Below, in pieces: positions 3,933 to 37,108 of a stretch of 41,744 nucleotides of DNA. The notes under the pieces were generated by a model, which did not search any database, was not told where the DNA came from, and saw only the letters and a program-made list of their open reading frames with translations. Source of the DNA: a virus (taxonomy: Duplodnaviria; Heunggongvirae; Uroviricota; Caudoviricetes); the IMG/VR virus record IMGVR_UViG_2563366971_000005. One strand, 5' to 3'. Numbering within the stretch: the first letter of the stretch is position 1; each line of letters begins with the position of its first letter. The position numbers and the translations under genes were made by a program.

Positions 3933-6900
3933 TCAGCTAATCGTGATGCCTGCAGTGGCTTTCTTCATCACAACAACCAGCAAATCGCTGATACTTGCTG
4001 TGGGATACCAGCCATTTACCCACCATGCTGATACAGAAAACTCCAGCGTCATGTGACCGCGACCAGCAGGCATATCAATAACACCACTGTAAACCAGCGT
4101 ATTATCCAGCGCGGTACGGTTATAAATTTCAGCACCGTTTTTCTTCACTATCAGGCGGCATGACGAATAAGTATCGCTGTTCTCCCGCTCATGTCTGGCA
4201 CCGCTGAAAGCCACCGCCGGAATAACAATCTGCCGGTTAAACGGCTGATCGTCATAAACCCTGACGGTAATGGTTCCTGATGGCCAACGCTTCGGTGCAC
4301 GGGAGTCACGGGGGAAAGCCTTACCCACTGTTTTAACGAGATCGCCTTCAATCTGGTTTGCAGACAGTTTCCCTCTGATGACACAGTTCTCGTTAATGGT
4401 GACATTATTGAGCGTGCCGGTATTCGCCGTGATGGCTCCACTGATATCCGCATTGCGGGCTGTCAGCCTGCCATCCGGCGTCAGGGAAAACGTCGGAGGA
4501 TTGCCGGATGACGTGATGCTCACCGCAAACAGTCGCTTCAGGAACACGTCGTTCATGAACAGCTGATTCCCCTGCGCCACAAACAGCGGCGTGGTGTTGC
4601 CGTTCTCCGGGGTAATCATCGCAATGCGATCGGCCTGCAGCAGAATGTTACTCAGGGTCTGATCATCAACATCCTCAATCCCCGCGCCAATCCCGGCCAC
4701 ATAGGGAATACCGTTTTTTGTTTTCTGCACCTTCAGCATATACATGGCATTCAGCTCATTGCGCGTGTCTGACTGAACCCGCTGGATTTGCTGTATGGTC
4801 ACGGCCTGGTCACCCAGCTTTTTATCCGTGGTCGAGGTAATTTCACTCCCTTTTTTATCCACGTACTGGCGGACCTGTGCTATCTGTCGGGCGTTTTCTG
4901 ACTGCCCCTGGCTGACAGTCTGTGAGATTTCACTGCTCACCCGGTCCACTTTCTGGCTCACCTGCGCGATGGCCAGTGTCTGGTCCTCATTCTTTTTCGC
5001 AACCAGCTGCGTGAGGCTGTTTTCCGCCTTCCCGATTTTCCGGGTCACTTCTGCGATATCCGTGTCCATCCGCTGACGGATATCTTCTTCCAGTTGCGTG
5101 ACCTCCGTACGCAGCGCTGAAGCATCAATGCGCTCTTTCAGTGCCTGACCCAGAAGCGTCTCATCTATCAGCCCCCGGAAAATTTCCAGATACCCTTCAC
5201 CATCATTGCTGGGCTGCCCGCTGGCTTCCACAAAAGCAGATTTCCCCACCAGGTTGACGCTGCGCACGTAAAACCAGAAATCCGTCCCCGGCTTAATCCG
5301 GCTCCCCTGGACAGTCCACTGACTGCCGGTCCCCAGATAACGGGCAGATTTTTCCACCTGTGCCGTGTTCGTGATGCGTTTTTCTGAGAACCAGAATTCA
5401 AACTGTACCGTCGGGTCATACACCGCAAGACGCGGGACCGCCGTTATCTGAAAATACCCCGGCGTCAGCTCAATGGTGGCGGGTTTTGCAGGTGCGTTAA
5501 TCCGGAAGGTGGTGGTGGCAGGTTCACCCTGCTGGCCATAACTGTTTATCGCCCGCACCGTCAGGGTGTATTCCCCCAGTGGCAGGCCACTGAAACGGTG
5601 CTCCGTGTCTGCGGTGATGGCGGTGGTCACCAGTCTGGCATCCGTTCCCTTACCACTGGTCAGGCGCAGACTGAAGCGCACGCCCTTCACCACCCGCGGC
5701 GTGTCCCATTTAGCCTGCGCCAGATACTGGCCGTCAGCTGCGCTCACCTCCACCGTCAGGTGCTGTACTGCCGGTGGGATGACGCTGTTCAGGGAGCCTG
5801 ACTGCGGCTCAAAGCGGGCACCGTTATCCACGATGGCTTCTTTTTCCGGTACGTGCTGCACCGCCGTGATGGCAAAGGTGCCGTCCGTGTTTTCCCGGAT
5901 GGAGACACAGCGGAACAGGCGACGGCGCAGTGACGGCAGGGAGAGTCCCCACACACCGTATGTCTCCACACCATCCGGCAGGGTGCTGACCTGTATCCGG
6001 TCAGGCGCGGGGTGTGCGGTGATGGCCACGCTCGCCGGCTTACCGCTGCCGTTAATCAGATTAACAGTGGCCGTGCCGGTCTCCGGCAGTGTCACCTCCC
6101 GGTCCAGCGTCAGGGTACGGCTGGCGGCATCGATGGACAGGACACGTCCGCCGGTCATGGTCCCGGCATAGTCGTTATCACAGATTTCAATGATGTCACC
6201 GGGTGTGTGCCGCAGCCCCTGAGACCCGAGCGTGAAATCCACCGTCTGCGTTTCCAGCAGTTCGGTCTTTATCACCCACAGCCCGGCACGGTGGGCCTGA
6301 CCGCGGCTGGTACAGCCGAACGCGTCCATCTTCAGCAGGTTGCGTCCGTAGCGCAGTATGGCTTCCGGGTCTTCCACCAGTTCCGTGGAGGTCTGCCAGC
6401 CGTTCTGCGGGTCGGTGTAATTCACCTCCACCGCCGTGTGCCGGTCCTTCAGGGCACTGAAGCTGTAGCGGAACCCCACGCCGTTATCATCCACCACCAC
6501 ATCGCTGTTGGTGTACGGCCACACCACATCCGACGGGCGGTCCTGAACGAACGTCAGCGTCTGACCGTTCCATACCGGCATACAGCGCATCGCAGAGCAG
6601 AAATCACTGAGAACGTCCCACGCCTTACGCTGTTGTGCCAGGTACGCATTAAAGGTCATCCGCGGCTCGGTCCCCCCGAAACCATCCGGGACCGTCTGGT
6701 CGCAGTACTGCCCGATGGCATACAGCGCCCACTTGTCCACATCCGCCGCCCCCAGACGTTTTCCCATGCCGTAGCGCGGGTGAGTCAGCATGTCCCACAG
6801 GCACCAGGCCGGGTTGTTGCTGTATGCCGGTTTCAGACTGCCGTCCCAGATACCACTGTACGTGCGTTTTTCCGGGTCATAGTTTGACGGCACCTGGATG

Positions 6901-7625: not shown

Positions 7626-7731
7626 ACAGCCTTCCCCTGAATAAATTAACCGCCACTTGCCATTCCGTACAGAAGTCGGATATCCTTCGCCCGAAAAGCA
7701 TGAAACACATTTCTGCCATGCTAAAGAGAAA

Positions 7732-7764
7732 CCCCGGTATCAGCAGATACCGGGGTTTTCTTTC
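7732..7764. terminator. Perfect 10-bp hairpin flanked by T-rich sequence on both strands (bidirectional terminator candidate)
   Basis: ccccggtatc / gataccgggg stem with 4-nt loop, then ttttctttc on +. Confidence 0.5.
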
Positions 7765-29165: not shown

Positions 29166-30133
29166 TACGCAACCGCCTTTTTCTTATGGAAAACCAGCTC
29201 TCGAACCTGATCACCGTTCATGAGCATATTGTTGAAATCATCGTGATCCGGCCAGTACACGCTCACGCGCTGCAGGTCATTCTTTGCCATCAGATTGGCA
29301 TGAGCACATTCGCAAGCCGCAGCCAGCCCGGTGGCGCTGTTCTCGTCACGGTCAGCAAAAATAATCAGATGCAGAACACCAGCTGGTACACGGAACTTTT
29401 TCATAAAGCCGCTGTTAATGGTTGCCCAGGTGTTCACGTTATAAATCTGGTGCGCTGACAGCGCTGTTTCGATGCCTTCGGCGATACCCAGAGTGCTGGC
29501 GACAGGAAACATGCGGATAGCTACAGAACGAGCGTGATCCAAATAGTTATCTTCCTGCAGGGATTTGAGGCGCTTTGCACTGCTACCGATATCTGCTTTT
29601 TTATCACCATCAAGCAGAGTCTGGTGCAGATAGCACAACTCCCCTTTATCGTCCGTAGCAAGTGAATAAAGAGACTGGAACACACTCCCGTTGTGTCTCT
29701 GCCTGGCATTGAACCGGATCGCCTCAGCAGGAAGACTGAATATTCCACGAGAATTAAGATACGCTGCGCCGGATGTACCACGCAGTGCCTCCAGTTTTGA
29801 AAACTTGCTCAATACCCGTTTGCGTAAGCTGGTGGCGCTGCTGGTTACCGGGATTTTAACCCGTTGGTAATCATTACCGATCAGGCGGTCTATTTCGGTA
29901 CAAATCTCGTTAAATGGCTTCGCCTGTGTCAGGGTGACAAGTTTCATACCATCGCCACTACCACATACACAGATCCACGTTCCTGCACCGTCGCGGTCAT
30001 CAATTCGGAACTTGCCACGTGCACCGCATACCGGGCATTCACCCTTGAAGTGATTTTTTCCGGTTATCGGCGGCAGACCGAAGTGCTCTAATATTTCAGG
30101 CCAGCGGCCTTTCGCTGCATCTGCTGTTTTCAT
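29165..30133 (-). CDS. DNA primase-like protein (zinc-binding N-terminus + Toprim-like core)
   Basis: 322-aa ORF; CPVCGARGKFRIDDRDGAGTWICVCG zinc motif; acidic Toprim-like segments. Confidence 0.7.
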   Translation of the reverse strand: MKTADAAKGRWPEILEHFGLPPITGKNHFKGECPVCGARGKFRIDDRDGAGTWICVCGSGDGMKLVTLTQAKPFNEICTEIDRLIGNDYQRVKIPVTSSATSLRKRVLSKFSKLEALRGTSGAAYLNSRGIFSLPAEAIRFNARQRHNGSVFQSLYSLATDDKGELCYLHQTLLDGDKKADIGSSAKRLKSLQEDNYLDHARSVAIRMFPVASTLGIAEGIETALSAHQIYNVNTWATINSGFMKKFRVPAGVLHLIIFADRDENSATGLAAACECAHANLMAKNDLQRVSVYWPDHDDFNNMLMNGDQVRELVFHKKKAVA

Positions 30134-30134
30134 C

Positions 30135-31793
30135 TTACTGACTCAGACTGTTTATATTTTTCTGGAGTTGGTGCTTTGCCTGCATGATGCGCCAGGCCTC
30201 ACTGCCTGCCGGTATCTCACGTCGTTCATCACGTTCCTGAGATAAATCAATCGTTGTTTGTGCGTTTTCAGTGACCTTCTGAACCCGCTGGTGGCCTTTG
30301 GCAAACCGGATCAGTTTGTGTCTGATGTAGTTATTTACCTCAGGGGTAATTTCCATCGGAAAGTTACTCAGTCCGTCAGGCCACTCGCCGAACTTTTCCC
30401 GGAAAGTGTGAGCACACCATCCGTCACTGACTGGACGCCCCAGCGAAGCACGCTGGCGCTGATAAAATTTGATCTGACTCCACCAGGACTGTTTCTCTGC
30501 CTTCGTCGACTGATGCTGATTTTTACCCAGCTTATTAAGTTTGCGGCTAGTGTCAGTATCAACGTCTTCACCTCGCAGCGGCTTGTGTCCACATTTCGGG
30601 CAAACATAGACGCCTGCTGGCTTCATGTAGTGGCATTGAGGGCATTCATGTGGCAGTTTTTCGGCCCGTTCCTCAACTGCCCGGCGCACGCTTTCCTCCA
30701 TGCCGTCAGACTTACCGGGAAGCTCGTCGTACTCGATTGAATCCGGATAACCCAAACGGTGCACGGTGCCGCTGTGATCGAAGATAAGGCAGGACGCTTT
30801 ACCCGGTGCGGTGCGCAGCCCACGCCCGAGTGCCTGCAACCAGCGAATTTCGCTTTTTGTTGGCCTGGCGTAGATGATGCAACGAACGTCACTATCGAAT
30901 CCGGCTACCAGAACGCCCACACTAACGATGATTTTCGTTGCACCGGTTTCAAAGCGGTGAATGATGGTCTGGCGCTCATCTACCGGAGTGTCGGCGGTCA
31001 TTACCTCAGCGTTAACACCCGCCAGGTTAAACTGGATTGTCAGGTAATTGGCGTGGGCTACGTTGACGCAGAAAGCGATGGTAGGTAGATCCCGACCATT
31101 CTCCAGCCAGTTCTGTACAATGTCGCCCACCAGCGTAGAGCCGCACATGATTTCAGCCAGCTGTGTTTCGTTGTAATCGCGGCCGTACTCAAGCGAAGAT
31201 GTGGTTTTAACACCTTTCAGATCCGGCTTAGTTGGCGCGTAAAATTCGTATTTACTCAGATCGCCACGCTGGATTAACTCGCCGATGGTGGTCGGTTTAA
31301 TCAGTCGGTCATAGTATTTGCCCAGGAACGGGGAAAACGGAGTACCCGACAGGCCAATCACCTTTACGCCTTTGCCGCGCAGACGTTCGATATCCTTCAG
31401 GATGCGTTTTTTACGCAGGTGCGCTTCGTCGATAATCAGCAGATCGATATTTTCAGGAAAAACACGACGAATAAGCGTATCAGCGCTGGCAATCTGAATT
31501 TTCCGGTCCGGATCGTAGTTCGGGTGATCCGCCCAGATATAACCGATTTCATCTCCAGGTAAACCATACTGCACGAACCGATTAGCCGTCTGACCAATCA
31601 GGATGGTGTACGGAACACAGAACAGAGCGCGCATACCACGGCTGACAAAACCAGCAACTATGAAGGCTGCCAGACCCGTTTTACCGCTACCTGTTGGCGA
31701 ATACACCATGAAGGTGTCGTTTGCCTTCCAGTCACGGCGCAACATGTTTAGCGCTCGTTCCTGTGCAAAATTCGGCGTGATCGTCAGCTCCAT
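30135..31793 (-). CDS. SF2 DEAD/DEAH-box helicase with C-terminal zinc ribbon
   Basis: 552-aa ORF; Walker A PTGSGKT, DEAH box (IIDEAHL), C-terminal CPQC…CPKC. Confidence 0.8.
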   Translation of the reverse strand: MELTITPNFAQERALNMLRRDWKANDTFMVYSPTGSGKTGLAAFIVAGFVSRGMRALFCVPYTILIGQTANRFVQYGLPGDEIGYIWADHPNYDPDRKIQIASADTLIRRVFPENIDLLIIDEAHLRKKRILKDIERLRGKGVKVIGLSGTPFSPFLGKYYDRLIKPTTIGELIQRGDLSKYEFYAPTKPDLKGVKTTSSLEYGRDYNETQLAEIMCGSTLVGDIVQNWLENGRDLPTIAFCVNVAHANYLTIQFNLAGVNAEVMTADTPVDERQTIIHRFETGATKIIVSVGVLVAGFDSDVRCIIYARPTKSEIRWLQALGRGLRTAPGKASCLIFDHSGTVHRLGYPDSIEYDELPGKSDGMEESVRRAVEERAEKLPHECPQCHYMKPAGVYVCPKCGHKPLRGEDVDTDTSRKLNKLGKNQHQSTKAEKQSWWSQIKFYQRQRASLGRPVSDGWCAHTFREKFGEWPDGLSNFPMEITPEVNNYIRHKLIRFAKGHQRVQKVTENAQTTIDLSQERDERREIPAGSEAWRIMQAKHQLQKNINSLSQ

Positions 31794-32527: not shown

Positions 32528-32821
32528 TCAGGAGCGCGATTGCGTTCCTGCCAGGGGCGGCTGAGTTGTATACCCCTGTAAAGCTCTGCCCTGATTTCTC
32601 ACAAACAAGCGGAGCCTTGTGTTTGCTTCGTGCCTTGCTCTGTTCTCCTTGCGGAATGAAACAGGCTCAGCGTCAAAAGTGATTTCGTATACCTCCGCAT
32701 ATTTCAGGGCGACCTTCCGTCTCAGTGACGGAGGCAGCCCCTGTAACTGCTGCTGAATCCACTCTTCGTCTGCCTGGCAGTACCTAGATGGCATCTCTGT
32801 CTGAACGTAATTCTGGGACAT
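32528..32821 (-). CDS. Hypothetical protein (cII-position)
   Basis: 97-aa ORF; overlaps upstream ORF by 38 nt, so start may be the internal Met. Confidence 0.4.
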   Translation of the reverse strand: MSQNYVQTEMPSRYCQADEEWIQQQLQGLPPSLRRKVALKYAEVYEITFDAEPVSFRKENRARHEANTRLRLFVRNQGRALQGYTTQPPLAGTQSRS

Positions 32822-33035
32822 ACAAGCCCTTCACCTCTCCCGTGCGCGCTAAGCTTGGATGTGTATATGGAATGTTCGGATCCAGATGGCAGAGAATGGC
32901 AACATCCTCCGGAACGCCCCGCGTTTTCCACTTTCCAACTCCCTGACTACCACGAGGCCTTCCTTTCTTTGGGAACCTGCGGCCAATAGCGGCATTGGTC
33001 TTAAATTGAGTTTTTAATATTTCATAAAGGGTCAT
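32784..33035 (-). CDS. Small basic protein with AT-hook-like KKGRPRG motif in cro-position
   Basis: 83-aa ORF divergent from the repressor gene; weak RBS; no canonical HTH recognised. Confidence 0.4.
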   Translation of the reverse strand: MTLYEILKTQFKTNAAIGRRFPKKGRPRGSQGVGKWKTRGVPEDVAILCHLDPNIPYTHPSLARTGEVKGLYVPELRSDRDAI

Positions 33036-33146
33036 TCTTTAGCCTCACACCGGATACTCTGTTATCCAAGAATGTTAAACACGAGAATCCAAAGTATCAA
33101 GAAATTCTGTTACTTTAGTATCAGCAGCCATGAAAGGAGAAGAAAA
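33036..33146. promoter_or_regulatory. Divergent promoter/operator region (OR-like) with RGTATCA-type repeats
   Basis: ggatact (33053..33059, inverted), aaagtatcaa (33091..33100), ttagtatcag (33115..33124) between divergent genes. Confidence 0.45.
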
Positions 33147-33803
33147 ATGAAATCTTTAGGTGAACGCCTCATCAACGCACGACAAAAAGCTGGGTTAACG
33201 CAAGATGCGTTGGCTAAAAAAGCAGGGGTCACCAGAGTTGCAATCAGTAAAGCCGAGCAAGGCCTTACAAAAAGTTTCAACGGTGACACCCTTTTTAAAG
33301 TCGCAGCTGCACTGCAGTGTTCACCGCAGTGGCTTCAGAACGGAGATGAAAAAGATAAGCATTGGGAAAATAATGTTAAGAGCTGCCCACAGAGAGACAC
33401 AGCACACTCTTACCCTGTAATTAACTGGGTTCAGGCAGGATTATTCGCAACTGCTGGTGATGACTACAACATGTATGATCAGGATAATTGGAGGCATTCT
33501 GTAAAATACGCTGGTGAGAGGGGGTTCTGGCTGGAAGTGCACGGAGACTCAATGACTTCGCCCGTAGGAATAACATTTCCTGAAGGAATGTCGATCCTTG
33601 TCAACCCAGATAAAGAAGTTTTTTCAGGGTGTTACGTCATCGCCAGAAAAAAATCTACCAATGAAGCAACATTCAAAAAATATATTTCTGAAATGGGAAA
33701 GGCGTTTCTAAAGCCCCTTAATCCACAATATCCAATCATAGAAATGGACAATGATTGCGAAATAGTAGGTGTTGTGGTTGATGCCAGGTGGGATATTTTC
33801 TGA
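33147..33803 (+). CDS. CI-like prophage repressor (N-terminal HTH, C-terminal S24 LexA-like peptidase domain)
   Basis: Start at MKSLGERLINARQKAGLTQ (ATG 33147) after AGGAGAAG; HTH_XRE-like N-terminus; GDSM Ser and downstream Lys of S24 autocleavage fold. Confidence 0.85.
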   Translation: MKSLGERLINARQKAGLTQDALAKKAGVTRVAISKAEQGLTKSFNGDTLFKVAAALQCSPQWLQNGDEKDKHWENNVKSCPQRDTAHSYPVINWVQAGLFATAGDDYNMYDQDNWRHSVKYAGERGFWLEVHGDSMTSPVGITFPEGMSILVNPDKEVFSGCYVIARKKSTNEATFKKYISEMGKAFLKPLNPQYPIIEMDNDCEIVGVVVDARWDIF

Positions 33804-33899
33804 CCAGACACAAAAAGAAACCAAAGTATCAAAAATCACTTGCCACACCTTGATACCTTAGTTACCATGAAGCAAAGTTCGTAACTGAGGTATCATCTC
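33804..33899 (+). promoter_or_regulatory. OL-like operator region with RGTATCA repeats and a 14-bp inverted repeat
   Basis: ccaaagtatcaa (33821..33832); inverted repeat gataccttagttac (33852..33865) / gtaactgaggtatc (33881..33894). Confidence 0.4.
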
Positions 33900-34316
33900 A
33901 TGATCAATAAAGCTACAACTCTTGACTGTCTCGAAGAACTGAAAAACCTCGGCAGCCTCATTACACTAATAGCAAAAGCAACACCAGATGCTACGCTCTC
34001 TAGCGATATAGAGTCATGCGCAGGACTGGCATGGGATATGACAAATAGCATATCCAGAAAGCTATCGTCAGCAATGCTTTTACAGAACAAAAATTCTGCA
34101 ATCAACAACAGTCTTCGCACCCAACGCGAAGACTGCGGCTTAACAACAGCCGAACTCGCCAGACTGCTCGATCTCGATGAAGAAATTATCATCCAGTGGG
34201 AGAGCGGAGAGTACGAACCAACCATCAGCATGCTTATCCCTCTGGCTAATGTTCTTGGCTGTGATCCAATGTTGTTATTGACTGATGCTTATAAACAAAA
34301 TCAGGAGGAAGCATAA
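33900..34316 (+). CDS. HTH (XRE-family) DNA-binding protein with unknown N-terminal domain
   Basis: 138-aa ORF; C-terminal GLTTAELARLLDLDEEIIIQWESGEYEP helix-turn-helix. Confidence 0.6.
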   Translation: MINKATTLDCLEELKNLGSLITLIAKATPDATLSSDIESCAGLAWDMTNSISRKLSSAMLLQNKNSAINNSLRTQREDCGLTTAELARLLDLDEEIIIQWESGEYEPTISMLIPLANVLGCDPMLLLTDAYKQNQEEA

Positions 34317-34317
34317 G

Positions 34318-34509
34318 ATGAAAATGTTCAAAGGCCTCACCAACGAACCGGAAACAGCTTTTCATCACATTGCCGTACTGCTTGAAGCGGGGTTAATCAT
34401 TTCGGCTTCCGGTGATGAAGAATGTGATGAACTTTCGGATGATATCTTTTTACTGGCACAACAATACGCCAGAAGCGCATGCGATGCATTTAAGGAGCAA
34501 AGAACATGA
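34318..34509 (+). CDS. Hypothetical small acidic protein
   Basis: 63-aa ORF starting 2 nt after previous stop. Confidence 0.4.
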   Translation: MKMFKGLTNEPETAFHHIAVLLEAGLIISASGDEECDELSDDIFLLAQQYARSACDAFKEQRT

Positions 34510-36095: not shown

Positions 36096-36284
36096 ATGAA
36101 CATTTATTTCAGAATAGTTATATCACTGGCAATTATCACATGTATTTACGGATTAATCGTTCCGGCCCTCATATCAATGAAGGATACGGTAGCAGTGATT
36201 TCTGGCTTTGCTCTGGCGTGTCTGACCCCGCCCTGCATTTATGCCATTTATAAGGGTCTTTCTTTTTCTAAGGATAAAAGATGA
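36096..36284 (+). CDS. Small two-helix membrane protein coupled to SPFH lipoprotein
   Basis: 62-aa ORF, AGGAGGA upstream, two hydrophobic segments; stop overlaps next start (ATGA). Confidence 0.5.
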   Translation: MNIYFRIVISLAIITCIYGLIVPALISMKDTVAVISGFALACLTPPCIYAIYKGLSFSKDKR

Positions 36285-37108
36285 AAAAATTACTTTTTGC
36301 TTTAGCCCTTGTTCTGCCGACCATTGGCCTTGTCGGTTGCGATCGCGTTGAGCCTGGTAATGTGGGCATCAAAGTAAACAAACTGGGCGACGATAAAGGC
36401 GTCGGTGAAGTGGTCGGTGTTGGGCGCTACTGGACGGGATGGAACACTGAGGTTTACATCTTCCCGACCTTTAAGCAGATGAAGACCTACGATGATCCAT
36501 TCAGTTTCCAGATGAGTGACGGTACAACCATCGGCTATCACATCGGCGTGGCCTACAAAGTTGATCCATCCAAAGTTACCACAGTCTTTCAGACCTACCG
36601 CAAAGGCGTGGACGACATTACCGACACCGACCTGCGCCAGAAGATAGCCGACGCACTCAACCGACTGGCCAGCAAAATGACCACCGACAAATTTATCGAC
36701 GGCGGCAAGTCTGAGCTGCTGGATGCAGCTCTTAAAGACATTCAGGAAGAAATGACGCCCATCGGTATTCAGGTAATGAGCCTCTCATATGTGGGTAAGC
36801 CGGAGTACCCGCCTACTGTTATCGACAGCATTAATGCCAAAGTCACGGCCAACCAGAAAACCCTGCAACGCGAGCAGGAAGTCAAGCAACGCGAAGCAGA
36901 GGCAAACATGCTGCGCGCGGAAGCTGCCGGACAGGCTGATGCGATTCGCACAAAAGCCCAGGCCGAAGCCGACGCTATTCGTTTACGCGGTGAAGCTCTG
37001 CGCCAGAACCCAAACGTTATGGAGCTGGAAGCCATCAACAAGTGGAACGGTACACTGCCGCAATACATGACCAGCGGTGCCAACACACCATTTATTCAGG
37101 TCAAGTAA
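36281..37108 (+). CDS. SPFH/Band 7 (prohibitin-like) lipoprotein
   Basis: 275-aa ORF; lipobox LVGC in MKKLLFALALVLPTIGLVGC; Band-7-like core and C-terminal Ala/Glu-rich coiled coil. Confidence 0.7.
   Translation: MKKLLFALALVLPTIGLVGCDRVEPGNVGIKVNKLGDDKGVGEVVGVGRYWTGWNTEVYIFPTFKQMKTYDDPFSFQMSDGTTIGYHIGVAYKVDPSKVTTVFQTYRKGVDDITDTDLRQKIADALNRLASKMTTDKFIDGGKSELLDAALKDIQEEMTPIGIQVMSLSYVGKPEYPPTVIDSINAKVTANQKTLQREQEVKQREAEANMLRAEAAGQADAIRTKAQAEADAIRLRGEALRQNPNVMELEAINKWNGTLPQYMTSGANTPFIQVK

Follow-up and report, generated by a model that had tools for sequence, protein, structure and literature searches.

The region at positions 33,036 to 33,899 of the viral DNA studied here (the window, a single stretch of 41,744 nucleotides) holds a predicted repressor gene that is accompanied on both sides by repeated short motifs and is followed by a palindrome. 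It raises the question whether it is a phage immunity region, as the initial annotation proposed, and, if so, which protein would read the motifs and what the palindrome is. In our analysis the region most probably switches a phiP27-type lambdoid E. coli prophage between lysis and lysogeny, and it is built as in lambda. Judged by its sequence, it is a lambda-CI-type repressor gene placed between two sets of three candidate 14-bp binding boxes and an ordinary member of a well-known kind; apart from the operator map, its architecture is textbook.

Gene Order and Distribution of the Region

A Cro-like gene on the minus strand, the divergent repressor gene on the plus strand and, on the same strand as the latter, an early operon that leads toward int and ends there follow one another in the order known from lambda (Table 1). 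The cI-cro spacer is 111 bp long and contains three 14-bp boxes, as it does in every lineage examined; the spacer 3' of the repressor gene is 96 bp long, and its three boxes bracket the sequence TTGCCA-N17-TACCAT. A longer ORF of 243 aa, starting from 33072, was rejected as the repressor: the ATG at 33147 has the AAAGGAG Shine-Dalgarno sequence and agrees with phiP27 and the Stx phages, where the protein is annotated with 218 aa.

The region is carried by 195 of the 5426 complete E. coli genomes (3.6%) in one copy per genome, which fits an immunity determinant, and phiP27 and several Stx1/Stx2 phages possess a switch identical in kind. A scan of genome contigs recovered distant relatives only (identity ≤51%), because the species-representative E. 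coli genome is without this prophage. The synteny of the Cro-like gene is kept in six further genera. An Rfam search of 32700-34400, with E up to 1, gave no match.

The 83-aa divergent ORF gave no hits in Pfam, NCBIfam or PDB profile searches, and fold comparison grouped it with the all-alpha helix-turn-helix (HTH) Cro proteins, the class of P22 Cro and N15 Cro; the putative DNA-reading helix of its family, SQ[GA]VGKW, is nearly invariant. The first gene of the PL-type operon encodes a 138-aa protein with Pfam HTH_3 at residues 72-123, which matches PHROG 4739 (unknown function) and PHROG 4836 ('CII-like regulator') and is annotated in Stx phages as 'transcriptional regulator'.

Operator-Like Boxes and Promoter Candidates

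The initial annotation counted at least six copies of AGTATCA/GGTATCA, three on each side of the repressor gene. The copies do flank both sides of the gene, but only five exact RGTATCA heptamers occur in the two spacers: three downstream, as claimed (33825-33831 and 33889-33895 on the plus strand, 33851-33857 on the minus strand), and two upstream (33093-33099 and 33117-33123, both on the plus strand), where the third copy is the one-mismatch AGTATCC (33052-33058, minus strand) within a degenerate box. RGTATCA is the well-conserved half-site of a larger unit, a 14-bp pseudo-palindrome with the consensus GATACTTTAGTATC, whose dyad symmetry is explicit in relatives, namely as GATACTTAAGTATC in Stx2 phage 12E129 and as GATACTTTAGTATC in the related phage L069.

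The heptamer was observed 20 times in the whole window against 6.7 expected from shuffles, and five times in the 207 bp of both spacers against 0.03 expected (Poisson p = 3e-10); none of the 100 shuffles matched the observed counts of either RGTATCA or the 14-bp pattern. With at most one mismatch, the pattern GWWACNNNRGTATC has six sites in the 207-bp spacers and occurs at four other places in the remaining 41.5 kb. Near-matches at 7728-7759 were rejected as operators because they form the stem of an ordinary terminator hairpin. When a weight matrix built out-of-sample, that is from the six sites of the different phage L069 only, was applied to the whole window, its top five sites were five of the six boxes. 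The remaining one, OR1, ranked only 8th; it agrees with the consensus at 11/14 positions, is degenerate in this lineage and, being a poor match, may be weak or non-functional. At the same position Stx2 phage 12E129 has its perfect palindrome. By comparison, OR3 agrees with the consensus at 13/14 positions, and the near-perfect palindrome of L069 stands at OL1.

Table 1. Features of the predicted switch region (positions of the window; sequence is that of the box or hexamers)
Feature	Position	Strand	Sequence	Remarks
Primase gene	29165-30133			PR-type operon
Helicase gene	30135-31793			552 aa; PR-type operon
Cro-like gene	32784-33035	-		83 aa; first in PR-type operon
OR1 (candidate)	33053-33066		GATACTCTGTTATC	cro-proximal; one mismatch to GWWACNNNRGTATC
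PR-like promoter (predicted)	33072-33100	-	TTGATA, TAACAT	-35 at 33100-33095, 17-nt spacer, -10 at 33077-33072; toward Cro-like gene
OR2 (candidate)	33085-33098		GAATCCAAAGTATC	5th best site in window
OR3 (candidate)	33109-33122		GTTACTTTAGTATC	repressor-proximal; top-scoring site in window; 24 bp from OR2
Repressor gene	33147-33803	+		218 aa; AAAGGAG Shine-Dalgarno at 33133-33139
OL1 (candidate)	33817-33830		GAAACCAAAGTATC	14 bp past repressor stop codon; exact pattern match; 4th best site
PL-like promoter (predicted)	33840-33868	+	TTGCCA, TACCAT	-35 at 33840-33845, 17-nt spacer, -10 at 33863-33868
Palindrome (OL2 + OL3)	33851-33895	+		15-bp arms 33851-33865 and 33881-33895
OL2 (candidate)	33852-33865		GATACCTTAGTTAC	between PL -35 and -10; left arm of palindrome; 2nd best site
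OL3 (candidate)	33881-33894		GTAACTGAGGTATC	about +7 to +20 of PL; right arm of palindrome; 3rd best site
First PL-type operon gene	33900-34316	+		138 aa; HTH_3 at C-terminal part

Both candidate promoters reached 9/12 in the consensus scan, with predicted starts at about 33065, within OR1, for the PR-like one and at about 33875 for the PL-like one. Both are placed by consensus matches, and their hexamers are kept in relatives: the PR-like -35, which overlaps OR2, is invariant across 24 variants, and the PL layout of -35, box and -10 recurs in Serratia, Klebsiella, Photorhabdus and group-B relatives. In both cases the promoter-like hexamers overlap the boxes at classical repressing positions. 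For the repressor gene itself the consensus scan yielded nothing convincing. A weak candidate, GTATCA-N16-TAGTAT (33094-33121), which overlaps OR3, was read by eye and is absent from the scan output; it puts OR2 about 5 bp nearer to the -10 than in lambda PRM.

The Repressor and the Proposed Switch

The repressor combines a P22-C2/434-type HTH domain at its N-terminus with a lambda-CI-type S24 domain at its C-terminus. Pfam recognized HTH_3 in residues 10-63 (E 1e-14) and Peptidase_S24 over the full profile (E 1e-22), and profile comparison with structures aligned residues 12-215 with lambda repressor 3bdn (E 2e-33) and residues 4-68 with P22 C2 (E 3e-9), followed by 434 Cro (8e-9), with the N-terminal domain of the 434 repressor also among the matches. 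The homologous proteins of phiP27 and the Stx phages are annotated as CI. The GDSM Ser and the Lys of the autocleavage fold, noticed earlier, were confirmed in the 3bdn alignment, where Ser135 (GDSM) and Lys177 (FKK) fall opposite EGNSMT and FTFKK of lambda CI; in addition, Ala97-Gly98 (VQAGLF) aligns with the lambda CI cleavage site VQAGMF. The lambda CI equivalents are A111-G112, S149 and K192. This agreement supports a repressor that would be equipped for autocleavage and suggests that the prophage may be SOS-inducible.

Most likely, the CI-type repressor would bind the six operators GATACTTTAGTATC as a dimer. OR1-OR3 would cover the leftward PR-like promoter, with OR2 over the -35 and OR1 over the start site, and OL1-OL3 would bracket the rightward PL-like promoter, with OL2 between the -35 and -10 and OL3 just past the start; the latter promoter presumably drives the early operon toward int. 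In the lysogen, the repressor sitting on the boxes would shut both early operons. When DNA is damaged, self-cleavage of the repressor at Ala97-Gly98, stimulated by RecA and carried out by the Ser135/Lys177 dyad, would release them, after which the Cro-like protein may take over at OR. That the repressor is the box-binding protein, and that it may bind cooperatively, we infer from the sequence; cooperativity of the lambda style cannot be assumed, since the centre-to-centre distances between the boxes (32 and 24 bp in OR, 35 and 29 bp in OL) are unlike those of lambda.

Conservation of the Boxes and Their Co-variation With the Recognition Helix

The search for the motifs in homologous phages, which the initial annotation had suggested as a check, found the boxes at the same positions in related immunity regions and across genera. 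In 24 OR and 28 OL sequence variants, 12 of the 60 half-site columns are variable as compared with 102 of the 140 columns outside the boxes (Fisher p = 4e-12, a comparison of column classes within one alignment of sequences related by descent, which falls short of full independence). The right half of OR2 is unchanged across the 24 OR variants, and among the 28 OL variants OL2 has two and OL3 one variable column of 14. In L069, whose repressor is 87% identical and has an unchanged recognition helix, all six boxes are retained while the spacers diverged, the OL2-OL3 distance being 3 bp shorter. OR distances of 32 and 24 bp are also found in Klebsiella L120 and group-B L131, the two relatives in which they were counted; the number of OL boxes in relatives is two or three.

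In relatives with a changed recognition helix the boxes are correspondingly changed and their positions are not. The helix (T/S)RVAISKAE goes with GATAC..GTATC boxes (E. coli, Klebsiella, Citrobacter, Yersinia and Photorhabdus), SRVTISKIE with GAAAC..GTTTC boxes and SRMAISKIE with TAAAC..GTTTA boxes. The reading of the locus as an immunity region, in which an S24/LexA-type repressor is flanked by OR-like and OL-like operator sets, is well borne out by the gene order, by three boxes on each side that are confined to the two spacers and overlap promoter-like hexamers, by their conservation and by the way they track the recognition helix.

The Palindrome Downstream of the Repressor Gene

The 14-bp inverted repeat with one mismatch reported at this place is real and one base longer: its 15-nt arms are complementary at 14/15 positions (93%) and stand 15 nt apart, and the right arm includes the GAGG Shine-Dalgarno sequence (33887-33890) of the gene at 33900, as had been stated. 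The repeat does lie just upstream of that gene, but the description of the gene as leftward holds only by analogy with lambda, the gene being on the plus strand. Nor is the large palindrome, although present, an element separate from the operators: it is OL2 and OL3 mirrored and flanking the PL-like -10, and it arises because these two are nearly identical boxes in opposite orientation. The idea that OL2 and OL3 are unusually alike for two boxes was rejected, as OR2 and OL1 are equally alike (13/14). An intrinsic terminator was rejected too, as the terminator scan of 32900-34000 found no terminator-like site; the A+T-rich stem of the palindrome is followed by CAUCUCAUG, with no U-tract, and lacks the form of such a terminator.

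A possible, though rather doubtful, explanation is that the palindrome was selected also, or instead, as an RNA hairpin. The repressor gene is not separated from the next one by a terminator, so transcripts of the repressor gene would read through; the hairpin would then mask the Shine-Dalgarno of the 33900 gene and leave the early operon untranslated in the lysogen, whereas PL transcripts, starting at about 33875, would be without the left arm and hence translated. The fold is stable (-21.6 kcal/mol, z -4.3) and does bury this Shine-Dalgarno, and the lone DNA mismatch, T33859/G33887, becomes a G-U wobble in plus-strand RNA. What speaks for it further is the distribution of terminators. All seven terminator-less loci (the window, L002, L003, L069, L126, L131 and L204) have a mirrored OL2/OL3 palindrome over the Shine-Dalgarno of the next gene, with -14.5 to -21.6 kcal/mol, while none of the ten terminator-bearing ones (L071, L120, L124, L128, L130, L133, L202, L206, L212 and L214) has a palindrome covering it, and OL3 is missing from most relatives with a terminator 3' of the repressor gene. 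The association is seen within both operator-specificity groups; in group B, moreover, a CTC/GAG extension of the arms past the 14-bp boxes pairs with the Shine-Dalgarno and is conserved while the remaining promoter spacer varies.

On the other hand, partial complementarity is expected between any two pseudo-palindromic boxes, and the pair OR2 and OL1, a direct repeat over a distance of 732 bp from which no hairpin can form, is as similar (13/14) as OL2 and OL3. The terminator-less loci represent only about two lineages, so that the module as a whole may merely have been passed on by descent; in Photorhabdus L124 a terminator and an OL3-like box occur together, and a repressor roadblock at OL3 would account for the association of terminator and palindrome too. 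Compensatory changes number zero among eight variants (12 pairs constant, two changed on one side, one broken), so that covariation speaks neither for nor against an RNA role. Since the palindrome covers the ribosome-binding site of the following gene in all terminator-less lineages, it may also act as a read-through RNA hairpin. Still more tentatively, one could suppose that in phiP27-type phages the terminator which normally stands between the repressor gene and the early left operon was replaced by a dual-use element, serving as mirrored operators in DNA and as an RBS-masking hairpin in read-through RNA. If this were true, PL transcripts would start in the loop and escape, and translation of the 33900 gene would be set by the promoter of origin. 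We favor the reading of the palindrome as two mirrored operators.

Other Candidates for Binding to the Boxes

Genes for three HTH proteins surround the boxes, and it could be argued that the boxes are bound only by the Cro-like protein or the 138-aa product of 33900-34316, and not by the S24 repressor. In favor of this, the Cro-like helix is nearly invariant, and a common frame, G...C....G...C, underlies the boxes in every specificity group. Yet the boxes change with the recognition helix of the repressor and not with the Cro-like protein, and Klebsiella, Citrobacter and Yersinia relatives have no member of the 138-aa family downstream but nevertheless retain OR1-3, OL1 and OL2; we therefore regard exclusive binding by another protein as highly improbable. 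In all characterised lambdoid switches known to us CI and Cro use the same operators, so binding of Cro is to be expected besides, and not in place of, that of the repressor, which we still take to be the probable ligand of the boxes. The notion that the repeated motif and the palindrome arose by chance in AT-rich spacers, for which one could cite the four other near-matches to the 14-bp pattern (one pair of which is the terminator hairpin mentioned above), is already refuted by the heptamer and shuffle counts together with the comparative data, that is the conservation of the boxes against diverging spacers and their positions kept across genera, and has practically no probability left.

Comparison With Known Immunity Systems

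With lambda the region shares the gene order and strands, the N-terminal HTH and the C-terminal domain of the repressor (E 2e-33), including the Ala-Gly and the Ser/Lys, as well as three predicted operators between divergent cI and cro and three before the int-ward early operon, both sets overlapping promoter-like hexamers. It differs from lambda in the P22-C2/434 type of the N-terminal domain, in operators of 14 bp (GATACTTTAGTATC) as compared with 17 bp and their spacings, in a repressor gene with a leader and a strong Shine-Dalgarno, in the all-alpha Cro-like protein and in having neither rexAB nor a terminator between cI and OL/PL. For phiP27 itself, the lack of an N homolog has been reported (PMC3430580).

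The five-helix XRE-type N-terminal domain and the short dyad operators are shared with P22 c2 and 434 cI, and the all-alpha Cro partner resembles P22 Cro. The 434 operators are also 14 bp long. In contrast, the recognition helix of P22 C2 is SNVAISQWER as compared with TRVAISKAEQ here, and P22-type relatives have TTAAG/CTTAA-type boxes. The same query recovered IMG/VR loci L072-L079, which encode P22-C2-like repressors.

The closest counterparts are the L11/L12 region of phiP27 (NC_003356), 95% identical over 32828-34284 of the window, and Stx1a/Stx2a phages (e.g., LC567842, LC567819), 85% identical, both sharing the genes and all six boxes. The window, phiP27 and these Stx phages represent one immunity type. 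The flanks are mosaic: the PR operon carries Ant genes in phiP27 and O/helicase in the Stx phages as compared with the 552-aa helicase and the primase in the window, the C-terminal tail of the Cro-like protein differs (83 aa in the window as compared with 75 aa), and the product of the first PL gene, 138 aa long in the window, has 215 aa in the Stx phages. Full-text literature on the phiP27 operators and repressor, a search to which the original phiP27 genome paper was external, yielded no operator mapping, and literature on mitomycin induction of phiP27 yielded no direct statement. The present work accordingly supplies a concrete operator map (a 14-bp consensus, six candidate sites and their promoter overlaps) for an immunity type for which we found no experimental characterisation in the literature and which is common to the Stx2e phage phiP27, several Stx1a/Stx2a phages and 3.6% of complete E. 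coli genomes.

In Stx phages the number and strength of operators are thought to affect spontaneous induction and hence toxin release; 933W has three operators at OR and two at OL, and H-19B has four at OR (PMC8065619). These two phages likewise have lambdoid CI/operator switches of E. coli prophages with a variable operator number, but are of unrelated immunity types, with presumably different repressor and operator sequences. The weak cro-proximal box of the phiP27 lineage, as opposed to the perfect palindrome in Stx1/Stx2 phages, may matter for induction and toxin release. Finally, the GATAC, GAAAC and TAAAC half-site groups, which are set apart by one to three recognition-helix changes, make a compact natural series for the divergence of immunity specificity.

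Organization of the immunity region

The window (41.7 kb) represents a lambda-like siphovirus prophage. Encoded on its minus strand are a gpA-type terminase, a portal of the lambda family, the major capsid protein E, a tape-measure protein and the tip attachment protein J. The segment 32828-34284 matches the Stx2e phage phiP27 at 95% identity and several Stx1a and Stx2a phages at about 85%, and the central gene of the segment is annotated as CI or lambda-type repressor in the phiP27 and Stx phage records. A Cro-like ORF diverges from this repressor gene, with 111 bp between them; small ORFs and the genes of a 552-aa DEAD/ResIII helicase and a Toprim primase come next on the minus strand. On the other side, 96 bp after the repressor gene and on the same strand, a 138-aa gene begins an operon that runs on to xis and int in relatives. 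This is the layout of lambda: cro is grouped with the replication genes on one flank, and on the other cI leads into the 'leftward' early operon.

Features of the immunity region and early operon in the window
Feature	Coordinates	Strand	Details
Cro-like ORF	32784-33035	-	83 aa
OR1	33053-33066		GATACTCTGTTATC
PR-like site	-35 33100-33095; -10 to 33072	-	TTGATA, 17 nt, TAACAT
OR2	33085-33098		GAATCCAAAGTATC
OR3	33109-33122		GTTACTTTAGTATC
Repressor gene	33147-33803	+	218 aa; AAAGGAG Shine-Dalgarno ahead of start
OL1	33817-33830		GAAACCAAAGTATC
PL-like site	-35 33840; -10 to 33868	+	TTGCCA, 17 nt, TACCAT
OL2	33852-33865		GATACCTTAGTTAC
OL3	33881-33894		GTAACTGAGGTATC
First PL gene	33900-34316	+	138 aa; C-terminal HTH_3 domain
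SPFH/Band 7 gene	36281-37108	+	E 8e-31
Tyrosine integrase gene	40431-41744	+	runs off + end of window

The ends of the phiP27 match are mosaic joints: the similarity begins within the 3' end of the Cro-like gene and extends to where the 138-aa gene ends. The Cro-like protein has 75 aa in phiP27, and its ORF in the window overlaps the next one (32528-32821) by 38 nt. The replication-side operon contains the helicase and primase in the window, Ant genes in phiP27 and O/helicase genes in Stx phages. Located between int and the immunity region, the early-operon gene of the SPFH/Band 7 family may serve lysogenic conversion or exclusion.

Putative operator boxes and promoter-like sites

Exact copies of RGTATCA number 20 in the window, against 6.7 expected, and five of them fall within the two spacers flanking the repressor gene (207 bp, 0.03 expected, Poisson p = 3e-10), at 33093 and 33117 upstream and at 33825, 33851 (minus strand) and 33889 downstream. 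The initial annotation had counted at least six, three per side; the downstream three stand, while upstream only two are exact and the sixth is AGTATCC, with one mismatch. Alignment with relatives revealed the heptamer to be half of a 14-bp dyad, which reads GATACTTTAGTATC in the first box after the repressor gene of the IMG/VR locus L069. The pattern GWWACNNNRGTATC, at one mismatch or fewer, is found at six sites in the two spacers (OR1-3 and OL1-3) and at only four further positions across the other 41.5 kb. Since this pattern was derived from the window's own sites, the second scan used a weight matrix from the six sites of L069 alone: the five top-scoring sites in 41.7 kb were five of the six boxes, and OR1 ranked eighth, the cro-proximal box being therefore degenerate in this lineage.

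A consensus scan, the hits of which are consensus matches and not mapped promoters, placed a PR-like site facing the Cro-like gene and a PL-like site facing the 138-aa gene, both named by analogy with lambda. OR2 overlaps the -35 of the former, and its predicted start lies within OR1; in the latter, OL2 fills the spacer and the beginning of the -10, with OL1 a short way upstream and OL3 covering about +7 to +20. Serratia, Klebsiella, Photorhabdus and group-B relatives (a specificity group apart from that of phiP27) share this order of -35, box and -10. The scan gave no confident placement of the repressor gene's own promoter.

In the phiP27 lineage the degenerate cro-proximal box (window 33053-33066, compared with 4200-4220 of locus L002) reads GATACTCTGTTATC or GATACTTTGTTATC; it is a near-perfect palindrome, GACACTTAAGTATC, in Stx1a phages and a perfect one, GATACTTAAGTATC, in the Stx2a phage 12E129. 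Such degeneracy might alter PR repression and the rate of spontaneous induction. Two or three off-target matches to the box pattern, at 7728-7759, are arms of an ordinary terminator hairpin, G+C-rich and with a T-run (GAAACCCCGGTATC-AGCA-GATACCGGGGTTTT, then CTTTC), which separates the gpJ gene from the tail gene after it.

Conservation of the boxes and co-variation with the repressor

Comparison of phiP27, two Stx phages and 67 IMG/VR loci yielded 24 distinct OR and 28 distinct OL spacers, in which 12 of the 60 half-site columns (box positions 1-5 and 10-14) are variable versus 102 of 140 outside the boxes (Fisher p = 4e-12). The central four positions vary more than the half-sites (10/24 columns), as expected for bases without contact. 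In L069, whose repressor is 87% identical and has the same recognition helix, the six boxes are kept while the spacers have diverged, and the OL2-OL3 distance is 3 bp shorter.

Further lineages, reached via the Cro-like protein family, belong to Klebsiella, Citrobacter, Yersinia, Photorhabdus, Salmonella and Providencia. In all of them a spacer of about 105-115 bp, containing three 14-bp boxes, separates the Cro-like gene from a divergent HTH_3+S24 repressor gene; where counted (the Klebsiella locus L120 and the group-B locus L131), the boxes are spaced by 32 and 24 bp as in the window. The recognition helix (T/S)RVAISKAE goes with half-sites GATAC..GTATC, SRVTISKIE with GAAAC..GTTTC, and SRMAISKIE, in Serratia, with TAAAC..GTTTA. 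The operator-like motifs proposed initially are thus conserved across related phages and co-vary with the recognition helix, which supports their being bound by the repressor.

Repressor, Cro-like protein and the proposed switch

The repressor comprises HTH_3 (E 1e-14) and complete Peptidase_S24 (E 1e-22) domains. Among solved structures, intact lambda repressor (3bdn) is its best match (E 2e-33, residues 12-215), and over its first 68 residues it also aligns with P22 C2 and 434 Cro. VQA97-G98 aligns onto the scissile Ala-Gly motif of lambda repressor, Ser135 (GDSM) and Lys177 (FKK) onto the motifs of its catalytic Ser and Lys, so that the autocleavage residues had been correctly recognized. 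In the Providencia alcalifaciens locus L129 (1733-2200) the called repressor has 155 aa and the S24 domain only, while the otherwise matching contig L130 (1733-2389) has the full 218-aa repressor; this suggests that the repressor gene of a resident prophage has been disrupted.

Sequence searches of Pfam, NCBIfam and PDB gave no match for the Cro-like ORF, one of a family of Enterobacterales proteins, roughly 70 aa long and annotated 'hypothetical', that has no Pfam or NCBIfam model. A conserved basic insertion of nine residues, FPKKGRPRG, separates the second and third helices of the protein. In the family alignment (A3) this insertion, FP[KR]KG[KR]PR, lies between HTH helices 2 and 3, has invariant P22, G25 and R28, and resembles an AT-hook core. 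The putative reading helix, SQ[GA]VGKW, is nearly invariant, though the relatives' repressor helices and operator classes differ. The first PL-operon protein matches PHROG 4836 'CII-like regulator' and, weakly, DicA; it has 138 aa also in phiP27 and 215-216 aa in Stx phages, and unrelated 65-71-aa proteins take its place in Klebsiella, Citrobacter and Yersinia relatives.

A lambda-type switch is the best-supported interpretation of the region. In the lysogen, repressor dimers would occupy OR and OL, perhaps cooperatively, and hold PR and PL off; DNA damage would cause RecA-stimulated self-cleavage of the repressor and release both promoters, after which the Cro-like protein would act at OR. 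The original reading as an immunity region is essentially right, refined by the 14-bp boxes, the five exact copies and the two-box nature of the palindrome.

The OL2/OL3 palindrome

The 'large palindrome' of the initial annotation exists, with arms 33851-33865 and 33881-33895 (14/15 complementary, 15 nt between), and its right arm does contain the GAGG Shine-Dalgarno of the 138-aa gene; yet it is not a separate element, being OL2 and OL3 in mirror orientation. OL2 and reversed OL3 share 13 of 14 positions, and the same degree of likeness is seen between OR2 and OL1, which are direct repeats at a distance of 732 bp.

As RNA, 33851-33895 would form a hairpin of 15 bp (-21.6 kcal/mol, z -4.3) burying the Shine-Dalgarno. 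The left arm precedes the predicted PL start, so that this fold is open only to RNAs reading through from the repressor gene, and no terminator was found between the repressor gene and the 138-aa gene, although most relatives have one. We compared 17 loci, the window and relatives including L071, L120, L124, L126, L128, L130, L131, L133 and L202-L214. In each of the seven loci without a terminator such a palindrome covers the Shine-Dalgarno (-14.5 to -21.6 kcal/mol), and all ten with a terminator lack it, an association present in both specificity groups. However, the terminator-less loci represent about two lineages, compensatory changes are none, the Photorhabdus locus L124 combines a terminator with an OL3-like box, and a repressor roadblock at OL3 explains the association equally well. 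It seems rather unlikely that the palindrome, in addition to its proposed operator role, masks the Shine-Dalgarno as RNA; this dual DNA/RNA use is the sole part of the system that might be new. The distance from the repressor gene to the one after it is 85-101 nt in the seven loci without an intrinsic terminator and 125-186 nt in the ten with one, L124 excluded for its unreliable next-gene call.

Relation to known switches and distribution

With an autocleaving CI repressor and a tripartite-operator switch recognizable at the sequence level, the operator-repressor system is predicted to work like those of lambda, P22 and 434, as an uncharacterised example of a very well-known type. It differs from them in operator sequence and length, in box spacings, in a repressor joining a P22-type N-terminal to a lambda-type C-terminal domain, in a leadered repressor mRNA, and in having neither rex genes nor a terminator. 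The cI and cro of phiP27 are listed as own variants, and N and cII are noted as absent from this phage (PMC3430580, PMC8065619); neither source contains a map of its operators.

The 921-bp immunity region is found in 195 of 5426 complete E. coli genomes, always chromosomal and once in each, as expected if it confers superinfection immunity; there it is annotated as 'LexA family protein / hypothetical protein / helix-turn-helix'.
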